IMG/VR virus record: IMGVR_UViG_3300031555_003801
Span: 1 to 64,000 of that record
Reading direction: 5' to 3' (one strand)
Source: a virus
Taxonomy: Duplodnaviria > Heunggongvirae > Uroviricota > Caudoviricetes
DNA length: 64,000 bases
Under the pieces are notes generated by a model. It searched no databases and was not told where the DNA came from. It saw nothing but the letters and a program-made list of their open reading frames with translations. Shown piece after piece: positions 2,980 through 26,536 of this stretch. The position numbers and the translations under genes were made by a program. Every line of letters begins with the position of its first letter. The stretch's first letter is position 1.

Positions 2980-3597
2980 ATGGCATACATTTATAAAATT
3001 ACTAATTAGATTAATCAAAAATCTTATATTGGAAAAACTTCTAAAATAAATCCACAAAGAAGATGGATGGAACATAAAGCAGATAGTAATAATCCTAATA
3101 GAAATCATAGAGCTTTATATAAAGCTATGAATAAATATGGAATAGATAATTTTATTTTTGAAATTATTGAAGAAACTAATTTGCCAGAAGAACGAGAAAT
3201 ATATTATATACAATATTATAATACTTATCATAATGGTTATAATGAAACTCTCGGCGGAGATGGTGGTAAATATTTAGATTTACCAGAACAAGAAATTTGT
3301 AAATTCTATTTAAAAAATAGAAATTTAAAAGATACCGCTGAGTTTTTTAATCATGATCAATTAACTATTAAACAAGTATTATATAAATATAATATAGAAA
3401 TTATTTCTTCTTATGAAGTTTTAAAAGAAAAAACTTCTAAACCAGTTGCGAAATTAGATAAAAATACAGAAGAAATAATTGAAATTTATCCATCAGTTAT
3501 TGAAGCAGAAAGACAAAATTCATGTCATTCACATATAAAAGATGTTTGTCATGGAAAAAGAAAAACTGCTGGCGGATTTAAATGGAAATTTATATAA
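2980..3597 (+). CDS. GIY-YIG homing endonuclease, 1 in-frame TAG (3007)
   Basis: MAYIYKITN*INQKSYIGKT...RRWMEH (GIY-YIG motifs) continuing into the ORF-track frame 3067..3597. RBS AAGGAG at 2965. Lies inside the tRNA array. Confidence 0.7.
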
Positions 3598-3598
3598 T

Positions 3599-3674
3599 GG
3601 GATTATAGCTCAAAAGTGAAGAGCGATGGTCGAAAGATTGGAGGTTGTGAGTTCAAATCTCACTAATCCCACCA
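3599..3674 (+). tRNA. tRNA-like gene with non-pairing anticodon stem (possible pseudo-tRNA)
   Basis: Acceptor gggatta/taatccc is perfect. D arm gctc-aaaagtgaa-gagc. T arm gtgag-ttcaaat-ctcac. CCA present. The region atggtcgaaagattgga does not form an anticodon stem. Confidence 0.35.
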
Positions 3675-5043: not shown

Positions 5044-5100
5044 ACTCACTATGTAAAAGAACCTTCTCGTGGTGTGAGTTGATTTCGACAGATACTTTTA
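5044..5100 (+). repeat. Diverged copy 3 of the ~55-nt structured element: stem GTAAAAG/CTTTTAC around AACCTTCTCGTGGTGTGAGTTGATTTCGACAGATA
   Basis: Core conserved with copies at 2897 and 10812. The outer stem sequence is different but still complementary (covariation). Confidence 0.45.
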
Positions 5101-5706
5101 CAAAAAAATAAATGCTAAATAACTCAGTGCTAAACTGTATCTCGCAGATATGGCTGAGGTATGCGGAAAATGGTCGGCAGAAAACGAAGCAGGGATACCT
5201 GTTGATACTGGCCCGCTGGTTCTAAGGTGACGAAGTTCCAGAAGAGGAGAGAACTCCCAAACGAAACGCATAGCATTTCATATATCGCAAATAAAAGCAG
5301 TAAGCGAATGGGCGAGGCAATAGAAAGCTCTGTGAATAGCGGAGCCGAATCCAAGTTAGGGTTTAGCTGGTGACTGTATCAATCCTTGGAAATACCAACA
5401 ACTCGTTTGGCCGTGAAGCAGAGAAATCTGTGTATAACATTTGCGCGCAACGTCCGAGTAGGTCAAGGCTATATTGCAATTCAAATTTTTGAAAGTTCTT
5501 ATTTGTTGTAGAAGAATTAACAAGAAATTTACTGAATTGTGGCTGAAAGGTGTGGGTAATCAATCCCGCATAGGACATTGGCTTTTAAAGCTGGGTTAAA
5601 AAAGTCACTGGGGTAGCTCCCCTAGGCTCAGATTTAACTCCCTATTGGCTGAATATATTTGAAGATATGTGACGTAGAACGAAGGTTCATTTAGCATTTT
5701 TTTTAT

Positions 5707-5780
5707 GCGGTATTGGTGTAGAGGTAACATAAGAGCCTTCCAAGCTTGGGTCGCGGGTTCGATTCCCGCATACCGCTCCA
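5707..5780 (+). tRNA. tRNA-Gly (anticodon TCC)
   Basis: Acceptor gcggtat/ataccgc. Anticodon arm agagc-ctTCCaa-gcttg. T arm gcggg-ttcgatt-cccgc. CCA present. Confidence 0.65.
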
Positions 5781-6888: not shown

Positions 6889-6917
6889 TTGAAAAATTTA
6901 AAAAAATATGATATAAT
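6889..6917 (+). promoter_or_regulatory. sigma70-like promoter TTGAAA-N17-TATAAT
   Basis: ttgaaa 6889-6894, tataat 6912-6917. Immediately followed by hairpin element 'd'. Confidence 0.6.
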
Positions 6918-6926
6918 ATTTATATA

Positions 6927-7000
6927 AAGATGGTTACAGCAAATATTTTGATATAACACATTTAATTAGGGATTAAAAGCGTATTATAATAAACCATCTT
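6927..7000 (+). repeat. Hairpin-flanked element 'd': AAGATGGTT / AACCATCTT with ACAGCAAA (6936-6943)
   Basis: 9-bp inverted repeat. It starts about 10 nt downstream of the -10 element and ends 8 nt before the split tRNA. Confidence 0.5.
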
Positions 7001-7007
7001 GCATTAT

Positions 7008-7572
7008 GTCCCATTAGCTCAGTAGGCTAGAGCACGTGACTTTTTAGACTCATGTAGATTGACAATTACTCAAAGAGGTGAAAAAATATGTTGAGTAGTC
7101 ATTTTATAGGAGAAATTACAGAACAGCAAGTGGCAGTTGAATTCTTAAAATTAGGTATTTTAGTTTCGAAGCCATTAGTACAAAGTTCGAAGTATGATTT
7201 TATAGCGGATATAAATCATAAACTTTATAAAATTCAAGTAAAAACTGGAACTTATAAAGAAGATGCTTATTTAGAATTTGCTACAAGTACAAGTCATACA
7301 AATACTAAAGGAACATTAAATCTTTCTTATTCAGAAGATGATGTTGATTTCTTTGCTACAATGCATGAAGGACAATGTTATTTAGTTCCTTATCATCTTT
7401 GTGGTAAAAGAATCCAAAGAATAAGATTTGTTCCAACTAAAAATGGACAAACAAAAGGAATTTTGTTTGCGAAAGATTTTCATTTAGAGGATATAGTAAA
7501 AACTTTGTAATTGTCATTCTGAAGGACTAAAAAATCACGGTGTCCGCAGTTCGAGTCTGCGATGGGACACCA
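7008..7572 (+). tRNA. tRNA gene (probably tRNA-Lys TTT) split in the anticodon loop by a ~490-bp ORF-containing insertion (intron-like)
   Basis: 5' exon: acceptor gtcccat (7008-7014), D arm gctc-agtaggcta-gagc, anticodon-stem strand cgtga (7035-7039). 3' exon: tcacg (7535-7539, exact complement), variable gtgtc, T arm cgcag-ttcgagt-ctgcg, acceptor atgggac (exact complement) + a + CCA (7562-7572). The insertion's ends pair into an extended rod (tttttag/ctaaaaa and tgacaattac/gtaattgtca). Confidence 0.55.
7088..7510 (+). CDS. ORF inside the tRNA insertion: PD-(D/E)XK-like nuclease candidate (possible homing endonuclease)
   Basis: 140 aa. Motif YDFIADINHKLYKIQVKT resembles D...(E/Q)xK. RBS AAAGAGGTG upstream. 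A PD-(D/E)XK homing endonuclease in a tRNA-fMet group I intron (I-Ssp6803I) is a precedent. Confidence 0.45.
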   Translation: MLSSHFIGEITEQQVAVEFLKLGILVSKPLVQSSKYDFIADINHKLYKIQVKTGTYKEDAYLEFATSTSHTNTKGTLNLSYSEDDVDFFATMHEGQCYLVPYHLCGKRIQRIRFVPTKNGQTKGILFAKDFHLEDIVKTL

Positions 7573-7711
7573 TTTATTAGTCCACTATGTGGATCAACAG
7601 CGTTAACATGGATTTGTAAGTTAAACTACCACCGACGGAATTCTATGAATGAAGGTATGTGGCTTAGTGGCAAACGCTATATAAGAAGGCAAAGTAAACT
7701 TACTATAATAT

Positions 7712-7788
7712 GTCCCTGTAATCCAACAGGTAGAGATAGTGGACTTAAAATCCATCCAGTGTGAGTTCGAATCTCACCAGGGACACCA
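7712..7788 (+). tRNA. tRNA with anticodon TAA (Leu-type anticodon) but class I architecture (5-nt variable loop)
   Basis: Acceptor gtccctg/cagggac is perfect. Anticodon arm gtgga-ctTAAaa-tccat. T arm gtgag-ttcgaat-ctcac. Discriminator A. CCA present. Confidence 0.5.
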
Positions 7789-7793
7789 AATAT

Positions 7794-7870
7794 GTCCCAT
7801 TAGCCCAATTGGCAGAGGCGTCTGACTTAGGATCAGATCAGTGCAGGTTCGAATCCTGTGTGGGGCACCA
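7794..7870 (+). tRNA. tRNA with anticodon TAG (Leu CUN-type anticodon) but class I architecture
   Basis: Acceptor gtcccat/gtggggc (2 G-U). Anticodon arm tctga-ctTAGga-tcaga is perfect. T arm gcagg-ttcgaat-cctgt. CCA present. Confidence 0.55.
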
Positions 7871-7876
7871 TTTAAA

Positions 7877-7971
7877 AAGACGCTAGAATACAGCAATTAT
7901 TTTAGGTTAATAGAATTTTGTTGAAGAAGATTTTTAGATGGTTCGAATCCATCACAAGAACCTAGCGTCTT
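7877..7971 (+). repeat. Hairpin-flanked element 'g': AAGACGCTAG / CTAGCGTCTT (10 bp) with ACAGCAA; encloses an orphan tRNA 3' half (T arm gatgg-ttcgaat-ccatc + acaagaa)
   Basis: The inverted repeat, the motif and the T-arm-like segment are all visible in the sequence. No matching 5' half was found. Confidence 0.45.
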
Positions 7972-8098
7972 GTTTTGATTTATTCTGTTACTTAAATTGA
8001 GCGGATGTAGCCGAATTGGTATAGATACATGATTCTAGAGATTTGAATTATTTTACCTATAAATAATAATATTATTAGTTTAAAAGAATATAAATAAA

Positions 8099-8947
8099 AT
8101 GGAATTAATTGATTTTACAAAAGAGATAAATAATGCTTAGTTATTTGTAGGTTCTGGTAAAAAGAAAAAATTATTAATTAATTATAACAATGAATAGTAT
8201 ATAATTAAATTTGCTAAAAATATATGTACAAATAATCAAGGTATTATTACAAATTAGAGAGGCTTTTCAGAATATTTAGCTTGTCAAATTTATCAAAATG
8301 CAGAATTTTTTGTTTAGGAAACTTTATTAGGTTATTATAAAAATAAAAATAATATTTTAACTGCTTGTAAACTTGCAAATAATAAAATTACAGATTTTAG
8401 TTTTTTTATGGAAAAATATGATTATAAAGTAAGTAATAAATTAAATGATATTTTATTAGTTTGTAAATATATTAATATAGAAGAATACTTTTGGGATATG
8501 TTTATTATAGATGCTTTTATTGGTAATACAGATCGTAATACTGGTAATTGGGGATTATTTTATAATGAAAAATTAGATAAAATATTAAGCGTTCCTTTTA
8601 TTTTTGACTGTGAAAATAGTTTTTATCCCAATATGAATGATTATATTTTATAGAATTATTGTCAAAAAGAATTAAAAGAAATAGCTTATAATTATCCAGA
8701 ATCAAAAATAATTTATAATAATAAAAATATAAATTATTTTAATTTTATTTCTTCTTTAGAGAATGAAGATTGTAATGAAGCTTTAAAAAGAATTGTTCCT
8801 AAAATTGATATAGAAAAAATTATTTAGATTATAAATGATCTTCCACTTGAAAAAATATAGAAAAATTTTTTAATAACAATTCTTCAAAAAAGAAAAGAAT
8901 TATTAAATCTTGTTTTAATAAAACTTAATGAAAGAGAAAACCAATGA
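8099..8947 (+). CDS. HipA-like (HipA/CtkA kinase family, divergent catalytic motif) protein with 7 in-frame TAG codons
   Basis: VGSGKKKKL (P-loop-like) and FIIDAFIGNTDRNTGNWG (HipA C-terminal motif region, with D-R-N in place of D-x-H). Same frame as ORF-track fragment 8408..8653. Overlaps the E1 start (ATGA). Confidence 0.5.
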
Positions 8948-9675
8948 TTAGATATAAAGAAAATATTGATGAATTTAATTTAACAGAAAAAATTCAAAAT
9001 CAATTATTAACAAAAAATATTGCAGTAATTGGTTGTGGCGGACAAGGTGGATATACTTTAGAATTTCTTATTCGATTAGGAATTAAATCTATTATTTTTT
9101 GGGATGGAGATTATTTTGAAGAATCTAATCTTAATAGACAAATAGGCTGTTTAATTCCAACGTTACAAAAAAACAAAGCTTTATCTATGAAAGAAAGGCT
9201 TCAACAAATTAATCCAGAAGTAGAATTAATTTGTTGTGATTGGTATTTTGGAGATAAAGAAGATGATAAAGAGAAACTATCTAAAGTAGATTTTATTTTT
9301 GATGCTGCAGATTGTAATTATAATATTTTTAAATTAAGAACAATTTTAAGAGAAGTCATTATTGAATATAATATTCCTATTATTCGTTTCCCTATAAATA
9401 TATTAGGAGGTTATGTTCATATTGAAACTATGAAAGATTTAAGCCATTTTGATTTTATTACGCATAGATTAATTTATCAAAATAAAAATGAAAAAATTTT
9501 TCCAGAAGCAGTAAGTCAACCCGCTTATAAATGTGCAATTATTGCGGGCGAAGCTGTAAATCAAATGGTTCAATATTTTTCTAATTGTAGATATGCGGCT
9601 ATTGATACAACTTTAAATATTGATCTTTATCATCATAAATATGTTGAAGAAGATAGATTTGGAATTATTCCATAA
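8944..9675 (+). CDS. ThiF/MoeB/E1-like adenylyltransferase
   Basis: Rossmann motif IAVIGCGGQGGY. Signature FEESNLNRQ. 243 aa. Confidence 0.75.
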   Translation: MIRYKENIDEFNLTEKIQNQLLTKNIAVIGCGGQGGYTLEFLIRLGIKSIIFWDGDYFEESNLNRQIGCLIPTLQKNKALSMKERLQQINPEVELICCDWYFGDKEDDKEKLSKVDFIFDAADCNYNIFKLRTILREVIIEYNIPIIRFPINILGGYVHIETMKDLSHFDFITHRLIYQNKNEKIFPEAVSQPAYKCAIIAGEAVNQMVQYFSNCRYAAIDTTLNIDLYHHKYVEEDRFGIIP

Positions 9676-11052: not shown

Positions 11053-11061
11053 AGTATTAAA

Positions 11062-11151
11062 GCTCCGTAGTCTAATGGTAAAACGCCGGACTCTAAATCC
11101 GTTATACTCTCTGAAAGGGTAATCTGGGTTCGAATCCCAGCGGGGCCGCCA
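11062..11151 (+). tRNA. Amber suppressor tRNA (anticodon CTA, reads UAG), class II with long variable arm
   Basis: Anticodon arm (c)cgga-ctCTAaa-tccg(t) with U33 and A37. Variable stem tactct/agggta. T arm ctggg-ttcgaat-cccag. Acceptor agctccg/cggggcc (1 A-C at 1-72) + g + CCA. The D arm is irregular. Confidence 0.6.
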
Positions 11152-11264: not shown

Positions 11265-12230
11265 ATGGAATTAATTGACTTTACGAAAGCAATAAATAAT
11301 GCTTAGTTATTTAAACCTACTGGTAACAATAAAAAAAAATTAAAAATTATTTATAATAATGAAGAATATATAATAAAAACTTCAAAATATACAATTGAAC
11401 AAGATAAAGAAAATAAATATAAAATGATTGAATTGTATAATACAATATCGGAATATTTAGGTTGTAAAATTTATGATAGTTTAAATATACCTGCACAAAA
11501 AACTTTATTAGGATATTATTAGTATAAAAATAAAAAACAAATGATAATTGCTTGTAAAAATTTTAATATTGATGATAGTTTTCTTCCTTTTGGTATATTC
11601 TTTAATAAAGAACGACAACAAGATAATAATAAATTGCAATCTTTAGAAATAAAAAATATTATAAAAAAAATTGAAGAACAAAATATTTATGATTCTCAAA
11701 AAATAAAAAAACGTTTTTGGGATATGTTTATTATTGATGCTTTTATTGATAATCCCGATAGAACTTCTGGAAACTGGGGTTTTATAAAAGATAAAAAAAC
11801 AAATACAATCATAAATTTTTGTCCAATTTTTGATTGTGAATAGAACATATTTTTAGAAATACTATTAAAAAATAAAAAACAATTATTAAATAATTAGAAT
11901 AAAATAAATTTTTTAGCTATATCGCCTTTTAAAAAATCTTATTTAATTTATGATAATAAAGTTATAAATTATTTTAATTTTATTTCCTCTTTAGAAAATG
12001 AAGATTGTAATGAAGCTTTAAAAAGAATTGTTCCTAAAATTGATATGGAAAAAATTATTTAGATTATAAATGATCTTCCACTTGAAGAATTCCAAAAAAA
12101 TAATTTAATAATAGTATTAAAAAAAAGAAAAGAATTATTATTAGATTTTCCTTTATTTCTCTTACAAAATATAGATAAAAGAGAAAAATACGAAAAAAAA
12201 ATAGAAAGGATAATATATGATAAATTATAA
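11265..12230 (+). CDS. HipA-like paralog with 5 in-frame TAG codons
   Basis: MELIDFTKAINNA*... FIIDAFIDNPDRTSGNWG. Same frame as ORF-track fragment 11541..11843. Its C-terminal ~125 bp is a near-exact direct repeat of the 3' end of 8099..8947. Stop TAA at 12228-12230 overlaps the ycaO start. Confidence 0.5.
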
Positions 12231-14007
12231 AAATCATTATAAAGAACGAAAACCAGAGGAAACAATAAAAATTATAGAAAACTTTTTTTTAAATCTCAAT
12301 ATGAAAATTAAAAGAAATGAAGTTATGATTAGTGAAATAAATACTTATTCAATACAAATAATATTATTTGATAAAAATGATTTTTTAATTTTATACGCTA
12401 ATGGTAAAGGTGAAACAGAAGAATTTGCAATTGCCTCTGCTTATGGCGAATTATATGAACGTTTCTGTAATATGAGATTTATTATGAAAGATGGTATTGC
12501 TCAAAATTTATTTTTACAAAAAAGAAAACAAAAATATAATTATTATTATCATCCAGAAGAAAAAGAATTTTCTTTAATAGAATTAATTAATGCCGATCAA
12601 AATTTTCATAATTTTTTCTTAGGAGATTTTTCTGAAAAAGATTCTGATATTATTAATTTTTATAATACACTTTTTAATAATAAATTTATTGCTGCGCCTT
12701 ATCAAGATTTATTAGATTCAAATAAACAATATTTTTATAACCCATATTTAATGACAGTGTTAAGAGGATCTGGCGGAATGGCTGCTGGAAATACATTAGA
12801 AGAAGCTTTAAATCAAGGCATTTCAGAACTTTACGAACATTATATTACAGATAAATTTCGTTATTTAAAAAAAGATTTTGATTTTCATTTTATAGATATT
12901 TCAACTATTAAAAACCAAAAATTAAAAGAAAAGATAAAATTATTAACAGATAATGAAAACTATGAATATTATTTAATTGATTTTTCTTATAATTTTAATG
13001 TACCTGTTTTATTATCTATTTTAATTGATAAAACTTTACAAAGATTTTTTATTAATTTTGGTTCTTTTCCTATTTTTGATATTGCTTTAGAAAGAACATT
13101 AACAGAATTATATCAAGGAGTTGTTTCTTTTAAAGAAGAAGAACAATCAAATAATATTATTGTTCCTTATAAAAGTGGAGTAACTATTATAGAAGCTTTA
13201 GACGCTACAGCAAATGTCACTAATTCTCTTTGTTTAAATGAAAGTTTTTTATTAAGTGAAAAAAAATTTTATTCCCCTAATTCAAAAATATTTTTATTTA
13301 ATCAGGATAAAAATTATTCAAATGAAGATATATTAAATTATTATAAAAAATTATCTTCTTATTTAAATATTAATTTTTGTTATTTAGATGTATCTCAATC
13401 TTCTGAAATGCATGCTATACAAATTTATAGTATAAATTTACCTCATTTCTCGTTACCTTTGGAAGCAAAAAAAATGCTTTACAAAAAACAACAATTAAAT
13501 GTTTATAAATTATTATCATATTTTATTCAGTTAGAAAATAAATGGCTAAATAATCATATATGGGATAATTTATTATGGGAAAAAATAATAATTTTATATA
13601 ATCAATTTACTATTGAAGATATTTTATTGTTTAATATTAGTGCCTCTATATTTTGTTTTAATTTTAGTAAAACTAATAATCTTTTATCATTAATTGAACA
13701 ATTTATAAAAATGGATTCAAATATTTATATGATTGAAGAACAAATTATTGCTATGTCTAATAAATCAATTCTTTCAGAAGATATTAAAAAATTCTTAACT
13801 CAATATAGGTATATTGTTAATAATGATTATCTTCCAAGTGAAAAAACTAAAATATTAAAAACTTTAATACCAGAATTTTCACAAGATGAAACATTATTTA
13901 AAAATATTATTACTCCAGAATATTTCTTACAAGTAATAATGGAAAAATTATATGAATATTATCATAGTGAAAAATATTCTGATTATCTTGATGCTTTAGT
14001 TGGATAA
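12217..14007 (+). CDS. YcaO-domain protein
   Basis: ANGKGETEEFAIASAYGELYERF matches the YcaO ATP-binding/cyclodehydratase signature. 596 aa. No TAG codons. Confidence 0.7.
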   Translation: MINYKNHYKERKPEETIKIIENFFLNLNMKIKRNEVMISEINTYSIQIILFDKNDFLILYANGKGETEEFAIASAYGELYERFCNMRFIMKDGIAQNLFLQKRKQKYNYYYHPEEKEFSLIELINADQNFHNFFLGDFSEKDSDIINFYNTLFNNKFIAAPYQDLLDSNKQYFYNPYLMTVLRGSGGMAAGNTLEEALNQGISELYEHYITDKFRYLKKDFDFHFIDISTIKNQKLKEKIKLLTDNENYEYYLIDFSYNFNVPVLLSILIDKTLQRFFINFGSFPIFDIALERTLTELYQGVVSFKEEEQSNNIIVPYKSGVTIIEALDATANVTNSLCLNESFLLSEKKFYSPNSKIFLFNQDKNYSNEDILNYYKKLSSYLNINFCYLDVSQSSEMHAIQIYSINLPHFSLPLEAKKMLYKKQQLNVYKLLSYFIQLENKWLNNHIWDNLLWEKIIILYNQFTIEDILLFNISASIFCFNFSKTNNLLSLIEQFIKMDSNIYMIEEQIIAMSNKSILSEDIKKFLTQYRYIVNNDYLPSEKTKILKTLIPEFSQDETLFKNIITPEYFLQVIMEKLYEYYHSEKYSDYLDALVG

Positions 14008-14153: not shown

Positions 14154-15710
14154 ATGAATAAGTTTTTAAATGGATTAACTGATGCAACTAACTTCACTTA
14201 CACTGAAAATGGTGCTATTACCCATAAAACTACTAAGTCTGCTCTGTTAGATATGTTCGCACTTGGTGGAGCATATAGAACTAGAAGTGACGCAGAAGTA
14301 ATCACCTTATTTAAGAACGCATATGAGGAAAATCCTGTTTATGCGTTAAAGTGCCTGTTCTATCTGCGCGACGTGCGTGGCGGACAGGGTGAAAGAAGAT
14401 TTTTCAAAACTGCAATGAAGTGGTTTGCTAATGCTGATGTAGAAGCAGCAAGAAGAAATTTCAAGCATATTCCAGAGTTTGGTAGATGGGATGATTTATA
14501 TCTTTTCATTAATACGCCTCTTGAAAATGAAATGTTCCAGTTTATGAAGGAACAGTTAGCACTCGATATGCAGTGCAAAACACCTTCTCTGTTAGCAAAG
14601 TGGTTAAAGTCTGAAAATACATCTTCTATGGAATCCAGATATCTGGCTAAGAAGACTCGTCAGTATTTTGGCATGACCGCAAAGCAGTATAGAAAGACAT
14701 TATCTATCCTCCGTGAAAGAATTAATGTTCTTGAAAGATTAATGTCTGCAGGTAAGTGGGATGAAATCGAGTTCGATAAGATTCCTTCTAAGGCAGGTTT
14801 AATTTATAAGAATGCTTTTGCTAGACACGATATCGAAAGAATGAAGACTGAAAAGGCTGTAGTATCTTATGCGGATTTCGCTAAGGATGTAACTACAACT
14901 GTAAATGCTAAGGCATTATATCCATATGAAGTAGTAGCTAAGGCTATTGATTTAATGGGATATAATGGTGGTTGGTTCCGTAGCACTCATGATGTTCCAT
15001 TAGATAATACTGATAGACTTATGATTAATAAATATTGGAATAATCTCGCTGATTATATCCAGGGTGCTAATTTTAATGGAATTGCAGTGGTAGATACTTC
15101 TGGTTCTATGACTGGTTCTTTTGCTAGTGCACCAATTAATGTAGCTGTTTCTCTTGGCATGTATTGTGCTGAAAAAAATAATGGTCCATTCAAAGATCAC
15201 TTCATTACATTTGAATCTAATCCTCATTTAATTAAGGTTGAAGGCGTAGACTTTTGCGAAAAGGTTTATAATATTACTGGCGCAGACTGGGGTGGTTCTA
15301 CAAATATTGAAGCAGTGTTTGACTTATTATTAGATACTGCTATCAGAAATAATTGTTCTCAGGATGAAATTCCACAGAATGTAATTGTTATTTCTGATAT
15401 GGAGTTTAACTCTTGTGTAACTTTTAATAGCTTACTTGCAAGAAGATATTATAATGAACCTATGTTTAATACTGAAACTTTATTCGAAACCATGGAACGC
15501 AAATGGAATAGAGCAGGATATCAGATGCCTGCAATTACATTCTGGAATGTTCAGGCAAGACAGAATAATATTCCAATGAAGACTGAAGGTAGAGTAAATT
15601 ATGTATCTGGTATGTCTCCAGTAATCTATGAACAGGTTATGAAAGGTTTAAGTGCTTACGATCTGATGATGGATAAGTTAGATAATGAAAGATATAGCGT
15701 AATTTGCTAA
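14154..15710 (+). CDS. vWA (MIDAS) domain protein with large N-terminal helical domain (Ro60/TROVE-like architecture possible)
   Basis: MIDAS motif VVDTSGSMTG. 518 aa. Clearly higher GC and different codon usage than flanking phage genes. Confidence 0.55.
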   Translation: MNKFLNGLTDATNFTYTENGAITHKTTKSALLDMFALGGAYRTRSDAEVITLFKNAYEENPVYALKCLFYLRDVRGGQGERRFFKTAMKWFANADVEAARRNFKHIPEFGRWDDLYLFINTPLENEMFQFMKEQLALDMQCKTPSLLAKWLKSENTSSMESRYLAKKTRQYFGMTAKQYRKTLSILRERINVLERLMSAGKWDEIEFDKIPSKAGLIYKNAFARHDIERMKTEKAVVSYADFAKDVTTTVNAKALYPYEVVAKAIDLMGYNGGWFRSTHDVPLDNTDRLMINKYWNNLADYIQGANFNGIAVVDTSGSMTGSFASAPINVAVSLGMYCAEKNNGPFKDHFITFESNPHLIKVEGVDFCEKVYNITGADWGGSTNIEAVFDLLLDTAIRNNCSQDEIPQNVIVISDMEFNSCVTFNSLLARRYYNEPMFNTETLFETMERKWNRAGYQMPAITFWNVQARQNNIPMKTEGRVNYVSGMSPVIYEQVMKGLSAYDLMMDKLDNERYSVIC

Positions 15711-15723
15711 TTCAAAAAATAAA

Positions 15724-15756
15724 AGGCGGGGTAAAAATACTCCGCCTTTATTTTTT
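15724..15756 (+). terminator. Rho-independent terminator
   Basis: ggcggggtaaaaatactccgcc + ttta-ttttttt. Confidence 0.7.
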
Positions 15757-15947
15757 TCAAAAAATATGATATAATATTATATAATAAAAAATAAGGAGTG
15801 ATATCATGATTCATGTATTAGTGATAGCTTTCTTTTTAAGTTTCTTTATGGCTTGTGTTGTTGAAAATGATGAAATGCCAAAAGAAGAAAAATATCGCTG
15901 GTTCGCAGTTATAGTAGGATTAATAGTTTATGTTTATTTAACTGCAT

Positions 15948-16751
15948 TTGTTTTATAAGAAAGGATTTTTAATGAAATATTTTATTGATTTTGAAGCCAA
16001 TAGTCCGACGAATGAAATCATTGAAATAGGTTGCGTTTCTGAAAAAAATGATTGTTTTAAAATGTATGTTAAACCAACTACACCTATTGACCCATTTATT
16101 ACGGGATTAACGCATATTACAAATAAAATGGTAGAAGATTCTCCTTTAATTGATGAAGCAATTATGATTTTTTATAATTGGCTTATCAATACGCAGGAAC
16201 ATTTTTCTTGGAAAGATACTACTTTTTATTGCTATGGAAATGCGGATCATTCATTTATTCAGGCTTCAGCACAAACTTGCGAAACAACTGATTCTTATAT
16301 GATTCTTGCGGCTATGGCTATGTCTTTGAAAGATTTTACCAAGAAAGTAAATCATTTCTTTAAAGATAGTATTTCTTTAATCCAGGCATTAAATTATTTT
16401 AAAACCTCGGAAACAGCTTGGGAGCAGTGTCATGATGCTCTTGAGGATGCGCTAGCTTTAAAAGAATTATATAAAGTTTTACCAAAAAAATATTCATTAC
16501 CTTGTTCTCCATTTGTTATTAAAACAGAAATGGGTGTTAGAAGAAATAAAAAAGGTTATGGATATACTGATTATATTAGTTTAACAGAAGCTACTGAATG
16601 TGTTGTAAAAGAAATATTAACAACATCACCAAATTCTAATGTTAAATCTGAAAATATTAGAAAAAGAATTATTCATGCTATTAATAAGAAAAGTTCTTAT
16701 ATGGGATATAAATGGAAATATGTAAAGATTGAGAAAGGGGATGAAGAATAA
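15948..16751 (+). CDS. DEDDh-family 3'-5' exonuclease (DnaQ/RNase T-like)
   Basis: Exo I motif FIDFEANSP..EIIEIG. Exo III motif HDALEDALAL. The true start is probably the internal Met at MKYFIDFE. Confidence 0.65.
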   Translation: MFYKKGFLMKYFIDFEANSPTNEIIEIGCVSEKNDCFKMYVKPTTPIDPFITGLTHITNKMVEDSPLIDEAIMIFYNWLINTQEHFSWKDTTFYCYGNADHSFIQASAQTCETTDSYMILAAMAMSLKDFTKKVNHFFKDSISLIQALNYFKTSETAWEQCHDALEDALALKELYKVLPKKYSLPCSPFVIKTEMGVRRNKKGYGYTDYISLTEATECVVKEILTTSPNSNVKSENIRKRIIHAINKKSSYMGYKWKYVKIEKGDEE

Positions 16752-18169
16752 TGTATTAGGCATATGTAACTAAATTAAAAAATGTGCGGCCGCACCCTAA
16801 TGCTGATAGAATGCTTTTAGCAGACTGTTTCGGCAATACTGTTTGTGTAGGCCTTGACGCGCAAGAGGAAGATGTAATTCTCTATTTTCCAACAGATGGA
16901 CAATTATCTAAAGAATATGCGGAAATCAATAATCTTATAAGAATCAAGAATGAAGATGGAACATATTCCGGTGGATATTTAGACCCAGATAAAAGAAACA
17001 TCAAAGCAATTAAATTAAGAGGTGAAAAATCTGATGGTTTAGTAATGCCACTAGAATCCCTTTCTTCTTTTGGAGATATTTCTACTTTAAATATTGGAAA
17101 TACAATTAATGTCTTTAATGGACATGAAATTTGTAAAAAGTATATTCCAAGAGAAAATCCAATGAAGGTGCGCGCTGGCGGTAATAAGACCCGCAAGACC
17201 AAGCGCCTAATTGCTCCTTTATTCAAAGAACATGCTGATACTGAACAATTAGCATATAATCTTGATGCTTTCAAAGCGGGAGATGAAATTGAAATCACAT
17301 TAAAGATGCATGGAACTTCTCAAAGAACTGCTTACTTACCAAAATTAATTGGTTATAAAAGATCTATTTTAGATAGACTCTTAAAGAGAGAAGGAACTCC
17401 AATCTATGATTGGGGCTATGTGTCTGGAACTCGTAGAACTGTTGTAGATGATTTTGAAAATAGAACAACTTCTTTCTATGGTAGTGATGCATTTAGAGAA
17501 CCGCATGCAAAAATGTTTGAAGGAAAGCTTTATAAGGGTGAAACTGTTTATTATGAAGTTGTTGGTTTTACCGATAATGGAACTCCTATTATGGGTTCTT
17601 GTGATAATAGAAAAACTCAAGATAAAGAGTTTATTAAGAAATATGGTGAAGTGACTACTTTCTCTTATGGTTGTGACTGTGCGGAACAAGCATGGAGAGA
17701 AAATAGAGGACAAGATCCAGACAAACCTCAGTCTGACATTTATGTATATCGAATGACAATGACTAATGAAGATGGTTATGTAATGGAATTAACTCCTGAT
17801 TATATGAGATATAGATGCGAGCAGATGGGTGTAAAGACAGTGCCTGTTATGTGGAAAGGATACATTCCTTATACAGTAGATGACATTGATTCTACTATTC
17901 CTGGTCACAGAATTATACTTAGAGAAGGGGAAAATGCTGGAGACTGGGTTAAGAGTGTAGCAGAACAGTATTACGATGGACCTGACCCAATTGGTAGAAC
18001 CCATGTGCGGGAAGGTGTAGTTGTAAGAATTATAAATAGACCAAAATTTGCAGCATATAAGCATAAAAACTTTAGCTTCAAAGTTCTCGAAGGAATTGTC
18101 AAAGCGGATGCATTAATGCCAGATATGGAAGAAGCACAGGAGACTATTGATGAAAGTTCAGAGATTTGA
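16751..18169 (+). CDS. ATP-dependent RNA ligase (Rnl2/Rnl5-like, nucleotidyltransferase motif I KMHGTS) with N-terminal OB-like domain; codon 3 is TAG
   Basis: ATG TAT TAG at 16751-16759 joins onto ORF-track frame 16784..18169. LKMHGTSQR resembles the KxHG(T/S)N motif I of the Rnl2 family. GC-richer than the surroundings. Confidence 0.55.
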
Positions 18170-20989: not shown

Positions 20990-22177
20990 ATGTCAAATTG
21001 TAATGAAAATAATTGTTCTTCTTTAAAAGAATTAATTACAAATTATAAATATAATAATTTATTACCAATTCATGGGATTTTATCTGTTACAAATAGATGT
21101 AATTTAAATTGTTCTTATTGTTTTCATAAACAAAATGAAATAGATATAAATTTTTATACTGCGGATATGGCTATAAAATATATTATTTCAAATGCGACTA
21201 TTCAAAAAGTAAAACCTAATATTAGCTTTTTTGGAGGAGAACCTTTATTATTATTTGATGAAATAATAAAACCATTAATTAATAAATATAAAGATTCTAT
21301 AAATTGGACTATTACAACAAATGGAACTTTATTAACAGAAAATATTATAGATTTTTTTACTGATAATAATGTTTCTATTTTATTATCTATGGATGGATGT
21401 AAAAAAGTTCAAGACAATCAAAGGCCTATGAAAAATGGAGAAAGTTGTTTTGATAAATTAAAAAATATCATTCCATATTTATTATTAAAGCAACCTAATA
21501 CTATTTTTAGGTCAACAATCTCAAGATATTCTTTAGATTTTTTAGAAGAAAATATTAATACGGCTAAAAATTTTGGTTTTAAATATATTACATTAGTGCC
21601 TAATTTATTTGAAGAATGGCAACCAGAAGATTTTTATAAGTGGGAACAATTTATAGATAATGAATCTATTAAAATTATGCAAAAAATTTCTTGGGAAGAA
21701 CCTTTTGATTACATATTAACAAATTTAAAAGATGGTATTCAAGGAATTTATAAATCTAATCAAAATAATTATTTAAAAAATCCTATTGATGCTTGTGGAA
21801 TGGGCTTTAAAGGTATTGGAATTTCTCCAAATGGAAAATTACATCCTTGTCAAGAAGAAAACGGTGTAGATGATATAAATATTATAGGTGATATTTATTA
21901 CGGAATTGATAAAAAATTACATGAACAATACTGTAAAGATATTTATAATAAATGGTTAGAATATATAGAAAAAATAGATAATATAATAGGAAGTTCTAAT
22001 TTTAAATTATTTTATGGAAATCATGTTTGTAATACAAGATTAAAAGATGGATTTGCTTTTAATAATACACAAACATATTATTTAAGAGCTTTACATAGAG
22101 CTTGTTCAAGATTATATTATAATTTTAATTTATCTTTAAATCCAAGAGCACAATATTTTTTAGGAGAAATTGAATGA
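20990..22177 (+). CDS. Radical SAM enzyme with C-terminal SPASM/twitch-like Cys cluster
   Basis: CNLNCSYC (CX3CX2C) near the N-terminus. C-terminal CGMGF...HPCQEENG cysteines. Confidence 0.8.
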   Translation: MSNCNENNCSSLKELITNYKYNNLLPIHGILSVTNRCNLNCSYCFHKQNEIDINFYTADMAIKYIISNATIQKVKPNISFFGGEPLLLFDEIIKPLINKYKDSINWTITTNGTLLTENIIDFFTDNNVSILLSMDGCKKVQDNQRPMKNGESCFDKLKNIIPYLLLKQPNTIFRSTISRYSLDFLEENINTAKNFGFKYITLVPNLFEEWQPEDFYKWEQFIDNESIKIMQKISWEEPFDYILTNLKDGIQGIYKSNQNNYLKNPIDACGMGFKGIGISPNGKLHPCQEENGVDDINIIGDIYYGIDKKLHEQYCKDIYNKWLEYIEKIDNIIGSSNFKLFYGNHVCNTRLKDGFAFNNTQTYYLRALHRACSRLYYNFNLSLNPRAQYFLGEIE

Positions 22178-23373
22178 TTACTTTAAACTTACATATAAAT
22201 TATAATTGTCCTTTATCTTGCCGATATTGTTGTCAAAGAAATGATATAGCTTTATTAGATTCTGAATTTACTGCTCAAGAAATGATTGATGTAGTACAAA
22301 ATTTTATGGATTCTAAAAATGTTGATAAATGTAAAATAAATATATCTGGAGGAGAACCTCTTTTAAAATATAAAGATATTCAACAATTAATGAAACATTT
22401 TCCAAATAATACTTATGAAATTTCTACTTCTGGATATTTATTAACTGCTGAAAAAGCTAAATTCTTTTCTTATTATGGAGTTAGTTATATTTTATCTGTT
22501 GATGGGGGAGAAAAAGTAACTAATTATTTAAGACCTCTAGCAAATGGAGAACAAGGATATTTTCAAAAATTAAAAGAAAATATACCACATATTTTATATT
22601 ATGCTCCAAGAACAAGAGCAAAATTAATTGTTCCTAAAAATTTAATTTCAGAAATTTTTAACACTTATTTAGAATTAGAAAGACTTGGTTTTCAAGAAAT
22701 TTTTATAACACCTAATGTATATGAAAATGAGGTTGATACACATCATCCAGAATTAGAGACAGGTCATTGGGAAGAAGAAGATTGGAATAAATTTAGAACT
22801 GAAATTTTTAAAATTATGAAAGAAATAGAATTAGGTATTTCTTTAAATCGAAAAAGATGTTTAATTACTAATATTATTACTATTTTAGTAAAAATGTTAA
22901 TTCCAGAAGAAGGAAAATTTAATAGTGCTAAATTAATTTGTGAAGTATTAGATTTTAAAGGCGGAACAAGTCCTGCTGGTGGGCAAGTTCCTATTTTAAA
23001 TACAGATATTTCTTTATGTATGAGAAATATAAATGAAGAAATTGATACTCAAGAAAAACTGTTAAATAAAATAAAACAAGATTATTTAGCTCTTAATGGC
23101 GTTTGCGAGCTAGATGAAAAATGTCCATATCAATCTACTTGTATGTATAGTGTTTGTTTATCTGAAAATTTAAAAAGTAAACATAAAAATATTTTTACTC
23201 CAACATTATTTCAGTGTAATACTCAAAAGATTTATCATGATGCAGCAATGTTATTTTTAAATCTTTTAAATGATAAAAATAATGAAGTTATAAAATATTA
23301 TTGGAATGAAATTTATTATAGAAAAGAGGTGTCTATGAATAATGCCTTATTATCCAGCTGGAACGGTGAATGA
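22174..23373 (+). CDS. Second radical SAM/SPASM-like enzyme
   Basis: CPLSCRYC (CX3CX2C). C-terminal CELDEKCPYQSTCMYSVC Cys cluster. Overlaps the upstream gene by 4 nt. Confidence 0.75.
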   Translation: MITLNLHINYNCPLSCRYCCQRNDIALLDSEFTAQEMIDVVQNFMDSKNVDKCKINISGGEPLLKYKDIQQLMKHFPNNTYEISTSGYLLTAEKAKFFSYYGVSYILSVDGGEKVTNYLRPLANGEQGYFQKLKENIPHILYYAPRTRAKLIVPKNLISEIFNTYLELERLGFQEIFITPNVYENEVDTHHPELETGHWEEEDWNKFRTEIFKIMKEIELGISLNRKRCLITNIITILVKMLIPEEGKFNSAKLICEVLDFKGGTSPAGGQVPILNTDISLCMRNINEEIDTQEKLLNKIKQDYLALNGVCELDEKCPYQSTCMYSVCLSENLKSKHKNIFTPTLFQCNTQKIYHDAAMLFLNLLNDKNNEVIKYYWNEIYYRKEVSMNNALLSSWNGE

Positions 23374-24130: not shown

Positions 24131-24850
24131 ATGGCTACTTACATTTGCAGTGATTTACATGGCAATTATAATGTATGGTATGAAATCAAAAAATTCTTAA
24201 AAAAAGATGATAAATTAATTTGCCTTGGTGATGTAATTGATAGAGGTTCCGCAGGATATTCCATTTTAGTAGAAATGCTTGGAGATTCAAGAGTAGAATT
24301 ATTTATGGGTAATCATGAAGATATGATGATTCGTAGTTGTGATTTACATCTTAAAGGTGCTAATACAAATACTTCTTCCACTATGGCAAATTGGATTTAT
24401 GGCAATGGTGGAAATTGTACTTTTGAAGATTGGTGTCTCGATCCTGGTCGTATGGAAATATTAGAACAAATGCGCAATCTACCTTTAAAAAGATTACATA
24501 TTAATGAAAAAGGTTTAAAAATTATTTTATGTCATGCAGGTTGTTGTTCAGAAGATTTTTATAATGATAATATTGAAGATTTTGATTTGTTATGGGATCG
24601 AAATCATTTTCATTTTCCTTGGCCAAAAGATGAAGAATTTGAAGACTGGATGGTAGTTCATGGACATACTCCAATAGCAAAGATGATGAATTGGCCAGAT
24701 TATGTGCCGACCAAAGCTCTATGGTATGAAGGTGGGCATAAAATTGATATTGATTGTTTAACAGCATTTACCAATTTTACTATTCTTCTTAATATTGATA
24801 CTTTTGAAGAACATATTATTGGAGAACCTATTGAGGAGGTGCTTTGGTAA
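24131..24850 (+). CDS. Calcineurin-like metallophosphoesterase / Ser-Thr protein phosphatase (lambda PPase/ApaH-like)
   Basis: Motifs CSDLHGN, GDVIDRG, GNHE. Confidence 0.75.
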   Translation: MATYICSDLHGNYNVWYEIKKFLKKDDKLICLGDVIDRGSAGYSILVEMLGDSRVELFMGNHEDMMIRSCDLHLKGANTNTSSTMANWIYGNGGNCTFEDWCLDPGRMEILEQMRNLPLKRLHINEKGLKIILCHAGCCSEDFYNDNIEDFDLLWDRNHFHFPWPKDEEFEDWMVVHGHTPIAKMMNWPDYVPTKALWYEGGHKIDIDCLTAFTNFTILLNIDTFEEHIIGEPIEEVLW

Positions 24851-25140
24851 TGGCTGCTTATGAAATTCATGATTTTTATTGTATTAAATGCGGAAATAAA
24901 TCAATTCCATTATCTCGTAAAAGTGGGCATCAGCATGCAAGAGGTCATAGAAAGAAATTATATTGTCCGCATTGTAAATTAACTATTAACCATGTAGAAG
25001 TAAGGAATTATGATGAAAAAGAAGAATTTTTGGAAAAATTTAAAAATGGTGAATTCATTGCCGAAGTCGAAGAAAGCATTGAGAATTGTGAGAATTCATC
25101 CATGCGGGTATTGTTCGAATCCATATCTAGCAAGAGATAA
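24844..25140 (+). CDS. Hypothetical zinc-ribbon protein
   Basis: CIKCGN...CPHCK. Confidence 0.35.
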   Translation: MVMAAYEIHDFYCIKCGNKSIPLSRKSGHQHARGHRKKLYCPHCKLTINHVEVRNYDEKEEFLEKFKNGEFIAEVEESIENCENSSMRVLFESISSKR

Positions 25141-25164
25141 TTTTGCGAGTCAAAAATATGATGT

Positions 25165-25674
25165 TTGGTTTTGTCCAAAATGCGGAACGGGATGGGTGAT
25201 ATAATGGCAACAAGTTTAATTATGATGGTTGGCGCGCCTGGAAGTGGTAAAACTACTTGGATTAAAAATGCTAAAGAATTTAATTTAGAAGGAAATCATA
25301 TTTCTCGAGATGTAATTAGATTTTCTTTAGTAAAAGAAGACGAAGAATATTTTAGTCGAGAAAATGAAGTATTTGATAAATTTATTGAAGAAATTCAAAA
25401 GTCTATTGATGCGGGACAGCGCACTTATGTAGATGCTACTAATCTCAATGAAAGATCAAGAAATAAAGTTCTTGATAGATTAAATCTTGAAAATGTAGAT
25501 TTATATGCTTTAGTTTTTAATATTCCTCTTGAAGAATGTTTGCGACGCAATGCTCTGCGGACCGGACGTGAAGTAGTGCCAGAAAGCGCTCTGACGCGCA
25601 TGCATAAATCTATGACAAATCCGCGAGGAGACCAGAAATATAAATATAAGGAGGTATATGTAATTTATGCCTAA
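25165..25674 (+). CDS. Polynucleotide 5'-kinase (T4 Pnk kinase-domain-like P-loop kinase)
   Basis: MMVGAPGSGKTTW (Walker A), ISRDVIR, DATNLNERSR, FNIPLEECLRRNALR, all similar to the T4 Pnk kinase domain. The start is probably the ATG at 25204. Confidence 0.65.
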   Translation: MVLSKMRNGMGDIMATSLIMMVGAPGSGKTTWIKNAKEFNLEGNHISRDVIRFSLVKEDEEYFSRENEVFDKFIEEIQKSIDAGQRTYVDATNLNERSRNKVLDRLNLENVDLYALVFNIPLEECLRRNALRTGREVVPESALTRMHKSMTNPRGDQKYKYKEVYVIYA

Positions 25675-25909
25675 ATATTGCAAATATTGCGGAAAAGAAT
25701 TAGAGTTAGATTTTAATTTTGATCTTGGTTTTTCTTCTCCTAATAATACTTCCTATAAAGAATGTAATTGTGAAACTAAACAAAAAATTAAAAAATTAAA
25801 AGAAAAAATTCATGAACTTGAAATAAAAAAGAAAGCTTTGCATGAAGAACAATATCATTTAAAATGCGATTTAAATGATTTAGAATATAATGCTACAAAA
25901 TATATTTAA
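25667..25909 (+). CDS. Hypothetical protein (Cys pair + coiled coil)
   Basis: ORF track only. Confidence 0.3.
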   Translation: MPKYCKYCGKELELDFNFDLGFSSPNNTSYKECNCETKQKIKKLKEKIHELEIKKKALHEEQYHLKCDLNDLEYNATKYI

Positions 25910-25912
25910 GGA

Positions 25913-26536
25913 GTGATACTAATGGGGAAAATTTTCCTTACTAGTGACTGTCATTTCAACCATGTTAATATTATTAAATATGAGTCTGAAACACGCGGCA
26001 TGTTTGCTAGTCCCGCAGAAATGAATGAAAAAATTATTGAAAATTGGAATAGTGTAGTTAGTCCAGAAGACACAGTATATGTTTTAGGGGATTTATGTAT
26101 GGGAAAGCTAGATGATATTCCCTTAATTATTGAAAGACTAAATGGCACTATTGTTCTCGTTCGCGGTAACCACGATACAGAGAACAGATTACGTCTTTAT
26201 CGTTCTCTTGGAATTGAAGTAAAAGATATTGCTTACCTTGAATATAAAGGCAGATTTTTTGTAATGTGTCATTTCCCTATGACTAATCCAGAATTTATTA
26301 AATTAGTTACAAAAGATAATAGTGAAGTAGTTATGCTTTATGGACATATTCACTCTAATGCGCCAAAGGGTTATGTAGATGGAACTTATCATGTAGGTAT
26401 GGATACAAATGATTTAACCCCAATTTCAATTCATCAAATTTGGAAAGAATGTTGGCCAGAAAATATGAATGAACAAAATAAAGCATATAAAGCAAAGTAT
26501 GAATGTGGAGGTTGTCCAGAAGAAGATAATTGTTAG
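25913..26536 (+). CDS. Metallophosphoesterase (calcineurin-like; candidate 2',3'-cyclic phosphodiesterase/3'-phosphatase partner of the kinase)
   Basis: TSDCHFNH, GDLCMG, GNHD, GHIH motifs. Confidence 0.7.
   Translation: MILMGKIFLTSDCHFNHVNIIKYESETRGMFASPAEMNEKIIENWNSVVSPEDTVYVLGDLCMGKLDDIPLIIERLNGTIVLVRGNHDTENRLRLYRSLGIEVKDIAYLEYKGRFFVMCHFPMTNPEFIKLVTKDNSEVVMLYGHIHSNAPKGYVDGTYHVGMDTNDLTPISIHQIWKECWPENMNEQNKAYKAKYECGGCPEEDNC

Follow-up and report, generated by a model that had tools for sequence, protein, structure and literature searches.

A tRNA-Lys(UUU) gene interrupted in its anticodon loop

The window analyzed here, a stretch of 64,000 nucleotides (nt) from the Caudoviricetes virus record IMGVR_UViG_3300031555_003801, encodes at 7008-7569, followed by an encoded CCA at 7570-7572, a single tRNA-Lys(UUU) gene that is interrupted between nucleotides 36 and 37 by an insert carrying an open reading frame (ORF) for a homing endonuclease. 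The 5' half of the gene (7008-7044) reads GTCCCAT TA GCTC AGTAGGCTA GAGC A CGTGA CTTTT, and the 3' half (7533-7569) reads AA TCACG GTGTC CGCAG TTCGAGT CTGCG ATGGGAC A. The acceptor (7/7), anticodon (5/5), and T (5/5) stems are exactly complementary, which bears out the claim of an earlier note, made from this sequence alone, that one tRNA gene spans the insertion. The 7-nt loop CTTTTAA is regained by one split only, after U36 (7044) and before A37 (7533), and the insert is therefore 7045-7532, a total of 488 nt. The earlier note had placed an insert of ~490 bp in the anticodon loop; its location stands, and its size and position are now fixed at 488 nt exactly between nucleotides 36 and 37.

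The identity Lys-UUU proposed for the gene minus its insert is confirmed by the loop CTTTTAA and by intron-less alleles. The predicted 28-nt exon-exon junction GAGCACGTGACTTTTAATCACGGTGTCC is present letter for letter in six phage tRNA-Lys(UUU) genes of IMG/VR that have no interruption, and these provide insert-free alleles of the kind that the earlier note had suggested looking for. The spliced tRNA of the window would read GTCCCAT...CGTGACTTTTAATCACG...ATGGGAC, with phage-specific sequences in its acceptor. Minus the insert, it has U8, a D loop with GG, a T loop of the form TTCRANY, and an anticodon loop of 7 nt in which position 33 is U and position 37 a purine. Standard ARAGORN and Rfam tRNA scans missed the split gene, though they listed 22 to 23 other tRNAs and a transfer-messenger RNA (tmRNA) in the window; with introns allowed, ARAGORN called a tRNA at 7008-7572 and misplaced the intron. 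No second tRNA-Lys is found among the tRNAs of the array to which the split gene belongs.

The ORF within the insert encodes 140 amino acids and matches PF11645 (PDDEXK_5) with 90.9 bits (cut-off of 26.1, E value of 9.6e-26, residues 4 to 133 of 140) and the structure of I-Ssp6803I (PDB 2OST) with an E value of 2e-6. The suggestion that it is a PD-(D/E)XK homing endonuclease of the Synechocystis I-Ssp6803I family was thus correct. The catalytic residues D37, Q50, and K52, which align with YD...VQVK of 2OST, are invariant among 40 diverse homologues (30 to 58% identity). A word-indexed protein search returned 646 homologues at E<=0.001, those listed being 82 to 95% identical, and 2089 clusters formed at 50% identity match the ORF at E<=0.001. 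Cleavage of the intron-less allele in DNA by the ORF product is the predicted homing function. In a 2026 paper, 80 PDDEXK_5 genes of jumbo gut phages were listed as encoding stand-alone endonucleases.

A mobile intron family with strict position and pairing rules

Relatives of the element were collected with a protein-based locus search that yielded 79 metagenome loci from rumen and human gut (38 to 94% protein identity) together with a few IMG/VR loci. Seven further loci come from contigs, probably of phages, that had been binned with genomes of Ruminococcus, Oscillospiraceae, and Clostridia. When each ORF was checked for flanking tRNA halves with a search written for this purpose, perfect or near-perfect tRNA stems were seen at 71 loci, giving 55 unique anticodon-arm constructs; nearly all other loci ended at a contig edge, and two (L068 and L075) are free-standing genes. 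When the genome contigs and the cultured Enterococcus phage EFP01 are included, there are 76 unique introns. The insertion lies between nucleotides 36 and 37 in all family members. The interrupted tRNAs are Lys (UUU, 33 introns), Thr (UGU, 17; AGU, 1), Asn (GUU, 11), Ile (GAU, 6; UAU, 1), Arg (UCU, 4), Glu (UUC, 1), Ala (UGC, 1), and Pro (UGG, 1). The family is large and covers at least 8 tRNA species; most members come from phage contigs of the rumen and gut, and a single cultured phage, of Enterococcus, also carries a member. A literature search found no prior description of this tRNA-intron element, and the family is apparently undescribed. The 5' end of the window intron, searched in IMG/VR, gave 0 matches.

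The last bases of the intron follow the anticodon of the tRNA that it interrupts. With intron nucleotides numbered i1, i2, and so on from the 5' splice site and -1, -2, and so on back from the 3' splice site, the anticodon is fully paired with the final three intron bases in 75 of 76 unique introns. Pairs were counted in the 55 unique constructs, anchored on the splice sites, and compared with 1,000 shuffles. Pair 34:-1 is canonical in 55/55 constructs with four pair types and pair 35:-2 in 54/55 with six pair types, and none of the shuffles matched either. Pair 36:-3, also canonical in 55/55, is a near-invariant U-A with two pair types and carries little covariation signal (17/1000 shuffles). 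Deeper in the intron, pair i1:-4 is canonical in 55/55 constructs and pairs i2:-5 and i3:-6 in 49/55 each. Besides the near-invariant pairs 33:37 and 36:-3, no pair was equaled by any shuffle. In every Asn intron, U35 and G(-2) form a G·U pair, a systematic usage that argues for pairing in RNA rather than in DNA. In all subtypes, two other features keep a constant spacing to the splice sites, namely, a C-G pair at i5:-8 (39/55) and an A·A at i8/-11 (41/55), which would fit a common recognition element. The positional rule (36/37) and the pairing rule, both of them strict, link exon and intron.

The interrupted tRNA genes of the family show no signs of decay. When spliced in silico, all 66 unique tRNAs were called normal, with U8 in 66/66, the T-loop consensus in 63/66, and GG in the D loop in 65/66. 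The sole exception to the pairing rule is a tRNA-Ile(GAU) at 932-1475 of locus L056, where the intron ends in AGC, which is typical of Asn GUU introns, and leaves an A35/G(-2) mismatch; it may mark a recent jump between tRNA species. At 873-1983 of locus L013, two adjacent tRNA-Lys(UUU) genes, 7 nt apart, are both interrupted at 36/37 by introns of different subtypes whose endonucleases are ~41% identical.

The two fold-back helices that the earlier note had named are supported by covariation, and the ORF is located in the terminal loop of the fold-back as described there. An alignment of 14 sequences of the window subtype has 99.2% of the cells of helices 1 and 2 paired, with 11 pairs changed on both sides, and 0 of 500 shuffles were as good; controls with slid partners were 36 to 49% paired. 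The stop codon of the ORF, TAA at 7508-7510 in the window, sits within the 3' strand of helix 2, and its second base (TAA or TGA) covaries with intron nucleotide 23 (U or C) on the other strand. The full region folds at z = -5.3, and the precursor with the ORF deleted folds at -52.9 kcal/mol (z = -4.8) into a cloverleaf with an extended anticodon arm. U33 pairs with A37, C32 stands opposite A38, and the anticodon stem is prolonged as one long irregular helix that displays the ORF in its terminal loop.

Both splice sites, 36/i1 and -1/37, lie within this helix on opposite strands, three anticodon base pairs apart. A double cut at the two sites would leave a 3-nt 3' overhang consisting of the anticodon. 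Pairs 27:43 to 36:-3 of the helix are the same base pairs as the left half and center of the intron-less DNA target, the exceptions being position 32 and the anticodon G·U pairs of some subtypes. The irregular segment between helices 1 and 2 is near-invariant within 14 to 18 type-A relatives (the window subtype) and has an AGUA/GAA-like look of loop E or bulged-G type, assigned by eye only. Readings of this internal segment as a kink-turn (box C/D-like CUGA...GA) or as a loop E were compared by eye across subtypes and gave no clean fit. A pseudo-palindrome, GACU at 30-33 and at -8 to -5, was also set aside, being one base off the register of cleavage symmetry and limited to some subtypes.

A pair of occupied and empty sites gives evidence of mobility. 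EFP01 (Schiekvirus) has a 463-nt insert of this family in an unannotated tRNA-Asn(GUU), and the tRNA-Asn is uninterrupted in 29 other Schiekviruses with flanks that are 92 to 98% identical (26 at 95 to 99%). The empty site in phage iF6 reads ACTGG CTGTT/AA CCAGT, and the EFP01 insert lies exactly at the slash, without target duplication. The element is a mobile, endonuclease-encoding intervening sequence without a recognizable ribozyme. In Pectobacterium phage My1 and in Kuttervirus, PDDEXK_5 homologues are free-standing between tRNA genes. Locus L075 holds a free-standing member of the family at ~940-1470, between two tRNA genes and flanked by a hairpin; a CA bulge follows just after its stop codon (AAATAA CA TTTTT...), like that in the Thr, Ile, and Arg intron subtypes.

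Candidate routes for removal of the intron

Rfam searches of 6950-7650 at E<=10 found no match to group I introns (RF00028), group II introns, or ribozymes beyond noise, and searches of 7 other family members found nothing. The same search recovered, as a positive control, the group I intron in a phage tRNA-Leu(UAA) at 8738-8925 of locus L012 with 54 bits. The earlier note, which had proposed this search of intron models, had also judged the insert too compact for a group I core, and rightly: the noncoding RNA amounts to 43 + 22 = 65 nt, with no terminal G. It had nevertheless left three explanations open, namely, a group I intron with a core embedded in the ORF, a bulge-helix-bulge (BHB) intron, and a mobile insertion at the DNA level. 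The first two are now disfavored, and the third, as an insertion purely in DNA, is still the main rival.

If the insert were a group I intron, degenerate or highly compacted and with a core overlapping the ORF, in the manner of the Synechocystis tRNA-fMet intron, this would account for an endonuclease family that is common to a genuine group I tRNA intron and for the U before the 5' splice site in 73 of 76 introns. Such an intron might also escape detection, as the Rfam model misses some tRNA introns at 36/37 (PMC13011429). However, a 3'-terminal G is found in only 4 introns, the others ending in A (54, including the window intron), C (17), or U (1), and the U before the 5' splice site is replaced by C in the introns of tRNA-Glu and tRNA-Ala and by G in that of tRNA-Pro. 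The 65 nt of noncoding RNA compare with a minimum length of 184 nt among the bacterial tRNA group I introns of a 2026 survey (PMC13011429), and no covariance model matches at E<=10. Nor is synonymous variation in the ORF suppressed. Among 20 relatives of the window subtype, ORF identity by codon position is 0.87/0.94/0.73, and third-position conservation is flat (0.64 to 0.85), which gives no sign of an RNA core hidden in the ORF. The group I explanation is largely refuted already, and we regard it as highly improbable. A group II intron was rejected, as the ORF encodes a 140-amino-acid nuclease, not a reverse transcriptase, and no Rfam group II model matches. Equally hard to credit is an archaeal or eukaryal type of intron, with a BHB cut by an EndA-like endonuclease and joined by RtcB, even though some archaea have protein-spliced tRNA introns carrying homing endonuclease genes and anticodon-intron pairing is also seen in eukaryotic pre-tRNAs. 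There are no two 3-nt bulges 4 bp apart; the sites lie in a continuous helix in which pairs 33:37 through i1:-4 are canonical in 54 to 55 of 55 constructs. A BHB at 36/37 would require 31-34 to pair with -3 to -6, which fails (A31 is opposite A-3 in the window) and shifts the register of the anticodon stem. Moreover, the position is 36/37 rather than 37/38, none of the 41 window ORFs scanned with Pfam matches the EndA or RtcB family, and the setting is bacterial (tmRNA and Firmicutes-type relatives). A new small self-splicing or self-cleaving RNA is a long shot by our reckoning. The irregular segment ACUCAUGUAGA / UUCUGAAGGA, with the C-G and A·A features, would be a catalytic core cutting both sites, and either the RNA itself or a ligase would do the joining. 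The segment is strictly conserved within the subtype, the two fixed-distance features are present in all subtypes, and its loop-E-like AGUA/GAA look recalls the loop-E motif that occurs in loop B of the hairpin ribozyme. Against such a core, the segment varies widely, being (U)GACC/GCUGAUG in some subtypes and just A/CA in the Thr and Ile introns, and both sites lie in a continuous Watson-Crick helix, which disfavors in-line attack; no Rfam ribozyme model matches, only ~65 nt are available, and the ORF is without RNA-level constraint.

We favor, at about even confidence, a mobile intron that is removed by proteins, with an endonuclease, which may be the encoded one, acting together with an RNA ligase. 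The intron would be excised without a ribozyme: the endonuclease would cut both strands of the helix to leave a 3-nt 3' stagger, and the RNA ligase would then join U36 to A37 to restore the anticodon loop. As the cutter, the encoded endonuclease is the leading and most economical candidate, because the two cuts would have the geometry reported for I-Ssp6803I on DNA and the RNA helix reproduces base pairs 27-36 of the DNA homing site; the alternative would be a host or phage RNase. RNase III was considered, by reasoning only, and is disfavored, as its 2-nt stagger would put the 3' cut one base early and produce the wrong exon ends. The candidate for sealing is the phage RNA ligase encoded at 16784-18169, with its kinase and phosphoesterase neighbors. 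At the DNA level, the element would spread by homing into empty tRNA alleles of coinfecting phages.

A more specific form of this proposal, which we consider rather unlikely as stated, is that the encoded homing endonuclease doubles as the RNA splicing endonuclease and that the phage ligase reseals the loop. The helix of the pre-tRNA would then be an RNA copy of the left half and center (27-36) of the DNA target of the enzyme, and the splice sites would be the same two bonds, one on each side of the anticodon triplet, that enzymes of this family are reported to cut in DNA. I-Ssp6803I reportedly cuts each DNA strand beside the anticodon triplet and leaves 3-nt 3' extensions.

Several points weigh against removal by proteins. 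The evidence for splicing is comparative throughout. We know of no cleavage of double-stranded RNA by restriction-like enzymes of the PD-(D/E)XK type, and the likeness of the RNA helix to the DNA site does not extend to the right half. Repeated homing into functional alleles, and not selection on the spliced tRNA, could be what keeps the exons intact. The hairpin at L075 could be an intron relic, or it could be part of a fold that serves the gene itself. A search for ORF-less mini-introns, with ARAGORN set to introns of 8 to 149 nt on limited sequence, returned only type II tRNAs and chimeras of neighboring genes. The ligase-intron link is weak as well. Ligase orthologues (56 to 58% identity) lie 4 to 9 kb downstream of the same intron in the L127 and L129/L130 lineages, and RlaP, cREC, and kinase genes are also present in one of these two, but the three lineages that share the link are related phages. 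A tblastn search with the window ligase found no Enterococcus phage match at E<=1e-3, so EFP01 appears to be without a ligase homologue. Co-occurrence of the ligase was accordingly set aside as a test of splicing: with related phages as its positives and EFP01 apparently lacking the gene, it is not decisive.

The main rival, possible but on balance doubtful in our view, is that the tRNA is never spliced: homing of a selfish endonuclease gene would have inactivated a phage tRNA gene that could be dispensed with. The helix would then serve the endonuclease gene, for instance, by protecting its message within the transcript of the tRNA array, by creating a processing site at which the message is released, or by coupling translation to unfolding through the stop codon in helix 2. 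This explanation is helped by the placement of the Shine-Dalgarno sequence, start codon, and stop codon all within the fold. Phage tRNAs are usually dispensable, and EFP01 is viable next to 29 relatives with an intact gene. Free-standing homologues exist between tRNA genes without an intron, that at L075 still flanked by a hairpin, and recent or repeated homing could explain the intact exons. However, the splice-site pairs (34-36 with -1 to -3) are kept in 54 to 55 of 55 constructs, compared to 49 of 55 deeper in the helix, and the anticodon pairs are rematched in each new tRNA species, which a stem needed for stability alone would not require. Furthermore, decay is seen in 0 of 66 unique exon pairs, although identity among the endonucleases goes down to 38%, the split gene is the sole tRNA-Lys of its array, and both tRNA-Lys genes of L013 are interrupted. 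Restoration of the tRNA gene in DNA, by a PD-(D/E)XK enzyme that excises or inserts an element with terminal inverted repeats, has very little probability in our estimate. The junctions are indeed inverted repeats that include half of the target site, and the insertion is clean, without target duplication, but the systematic G·U use (U35/G-2 in all Asn introns) favors pairing in RNA, neither junction resembles the full target site, and homing via double-strand-break repair already explains the pattern of presence and absence.

Genomic neighborhood and comparison with known systems

The features of the split gene and of its neighborhood are collected in Table 1. The segments 14154-18169 and 24131-26536 together form an RNA-repair-like gene set. 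A second promoter-like match, TTGACA-17-AAAAAT with TG (10/12) at 7059-7087, overlaps helix 2 and the ribosome-binding site; it is probably due to chance, its -10 element ending at the start codon.

Table 1. Features of the interrupted tRNA-Lys(UUU) gene and nearby candidate RNA-processing genes in the window
Feature	Position	Strand	Remarks
Promoter-like site TTGAAA-17-TATAAT with TG	6889..6917	+	~90 nt upstream of split tRNA; 11/12 consensus matches, consensus match only
5' exon: acceptor 5' strand, D arm, anticodon-stem 5' strand (7035-7039), C32, U33, anticodon UUU (7042-7044)	7008..7044	+	Junction borne out by intron-less alleles
Helix 1, 5' strand UUUUUAG: U33, anticodon U34-U36, intron nt 1-3	7041..7047	+	Partner 7527-7533; contains 5' splice site 7044/7045
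Intervening sequence, 488 nt, at 36/37	7045..7532	+	Boundaries same as in EFP01/iF6 occupied/empty pair
Irregular conserved segment, 5' strand ACUCAUGUAGAU	7048..7059	+	C(i5) pairs with G(-8); A(i8) opposite A(-11)
Helix 2, 5' strand TGACAATTAC	7060..7069	+	10 pairs, 6 changed on both sides
Shine-Dalgarno-like AAGAGGTGA	7073..7081	+	6 nt upstream of ATG; read from sequence
ORF, 140 amino acids, PD-(D/E)XK homing endonuclease, I-Ssp6803I family (PDDEXK_5)	7088..7510	+	PF11645, 2OST
Helix 2, 3' strand GTAATTGTCA	7507..7516	+	Holds stop codon
Irregular conserved segment, 3' strand UUCUGAAGGA	7517..7526	+	Conservation in relatives
Helix 1, 3' strand CUAAAAA: intron -6 to -1 plus A37	7527..7533	+	Contains 3' splice site 7532/7533; terminal AAA complements anticodon
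3' exon: A37, A38, anticodon-stem 3' strand (7535-7539), variable loop, T arm, acceptor 3' strand, discriminator A7569, CCA	7533..7572	+	
Ro/TROVE-like RNA-binding protein (DUF2828/DUF7788)	14154-15710		
RNase T-like exonuclease	15948-16751		
RNA ligase, candidate sealing enzyme (predicted link)	16784..18169	+	PHROG 968 E 2.5e-64; Pfam PF09414
Metallophosphoesterases, candidate RNA end-healing (predicted role)	24131-24850 and 25913-26536		
AAA_33 P-loop kinase, candidate RNA end-healing (predicted role)	25165..25674	+	Between two metallophosphoesterases
PIN-domain protein (PIN_4)	30301-30774		

The array of the split tRNA also holds a ROOL RNA, a tmRNA, and a suppressor-like tRNA. The ROOL RNA at 5099-5707 (RF03087, 337 bits) directly abuts a tRNA-Gly, and ROOL RNAs adjoin the tRNA arrays of L002 (4422-5011), L012 (4991-5605), and EFP01 (L124, 2133-2719) as well, in EFP01 ~460 nt after the interrupted tRNA. 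A role of ROOL in trans in tRNA processing would be pure speculation. The phage tmRNA (10465-10814, tag AKPYRLAA) is followed by a CUA tRNA with a long variable arm (11061-11151), which is suppressor-like and labeled "Pyl" by ARAGORN; similar CUA/UCA tRNAs are found in L002, L050, and L059, and the endonuclease ORF of L002 reads through in-frame TAG codons. Matches to YrlA, a Y RNA-like RNA, lie below threshold beside tRNAs in L096, L013, and L001. Genes for a ThiF-like E1 protein, a YcaO cyclodehydratase, and two radical SAM proteins flank the array (8944-9675, 12217-14007, and 20990-23373) and look like a peptide- or RNA-modification set.

Other mobile elements are apparent in the window and its relatives. 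A second homing-endonuclease-like ORF (3067-3597), with PHROG annotations that include GIY-YIG and HNH types, ends 1 nt before a tRNA at 3599-3671 that was detected by Rfam and missed by ARAGORN. In L012, a tRNA at 7787-8448 has a 584-nt insert with an HNH-type ORF, a terminal G, and no Rfam group I match, and the neighboring tRNA-Leu(UAA) at 8709-9000 is split by a group I intron of 206 nt (54 bits in Rfam); phage tRNA genes thus do harbor introns of group I. Farther downstream in the window, a GIY-YIG endonuclease ORF (42789-43160) lies immediately upstream of thyX, and an nrdD ORF (61416-62672) aligns with no more than positions 2-262 of the 562 in the NRDD profile, its first half, so nrdD may be interrupted by another mobile element further downstream. 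At 30301-31419, the PIN_4 ORF is followed by an ORF that matches only positions 14-156 of 205 of the PhoH profile, and the two resemble a split PhoH2-type RNA helicase/nuclease.

The well-known tRNA introns of bacteria and phages are self-splicing group I introns, rarely group II introns, and are ribozymes. To our knowledge, protein-dependent tRNA splicing is regarded as archaeal and eukaryal and is not known for bacteria or their viruses. Archaeal BHB introns with LAGLIDADG genes, in crenarchaeal rRNA and tRNA, offer the parallel of an endonuclease gene in a ribozyme-less intron for which removal by proteins is expected, but the window intron has no BHB, its endonuclease belongs to another family, it resides in a bacterial virus, and no EndA was found among the scanned ORFs. 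Nuclear pre-tRNA introns of the yeast type also extend the anticodon stem with an anticodon complement in the intron, but these short introns lie at 37/38, contain no ORF, and are cut by the Sen complex at sites in single-stranded loops or bulges. The intervening sequences of bacterial rRNA, processed by RNase III, share a long flanking helix, a host protein nuclease, and the lack of a ribozyme; unlike them, where fragments are not religated and the stagger is 2 nt, a working tRNA here would need a 3-nt stagger and religation. The free-standing endonucleases of phage tRNA clusters (My1 and Kuttervirus) are the same or analogous enzymes, target tRNA regions, and spread in coinfections, but they are placed between tRNA genes and interrupt nothing. 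T4 SegB is encoded by a free-standing homing endonuclease gene of this kind in a phage tRNA cluster.

The earlier note had compared the element to the tRNA-fMet intron of Synechocystis PCC 6803. That likeness holds for the enzyme family (PF11645, 2OST, and D...QxK) and for the insertion in the anticodon loop beside the anticodon triplet, but not for the kind of element: the Synechocystis intron belongs to group I, splices itself, and occupies 33/34 (PMC13011429), whereas the window intron lies at 36/37, has ~65 nt of noncoding RNA, no core, and no terminal G, and pairs its 3' end with the anticodon. In a 2014 review, all phage introns then known were in protein-coding genes (PMC3984707). In 2019, Devoto et al. 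described tRNA introns from Lak megaphages, called "enigmatic" and presented as the first known from phages (PMC6784885), and these were the only non-group-I phage tRNA introns found reported in our literature search. They share with the window intron the insertion of a non-group-I sequence in the anticodon loop of phage tRNAs, but the Lak Tyr intron examined here is 93 nt long by the authors' prediction (PMC6784885), has no ORF, and holds a tRNA-like element. The Lak introns were considered as ORF-less relatives of this family and are treated as a different kind, in view of that element and of the last three bases of the Tyr intron, which are not complementary to its anticodon.

As a mobile intron of tRNA genes that encodes a homing endonuclease, the element would constitute a new class if protein-dependent splicing were proven. 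Phage tRNA inventories are undercounted because standard tools miss split tRNAs, the unannotated tRNA-Asn of EFP01 being an example. With hundreds of close homologues, a simple rule, and one culturable phage, the question of ribozyme-less tRNA splicing is now directly testable. An endonuclease that cuts structured RNA at defined bonds, if that is what the family encodes, could become a tool. Should the same enzyme serve both in homing and in splicing, the introns of the family would form a class that is new in mechanism, and tRNA splicing by proteins alone would be on record for the first time in the bacterial world, with one small protein supplying both the mobility and the excision of its own intron.

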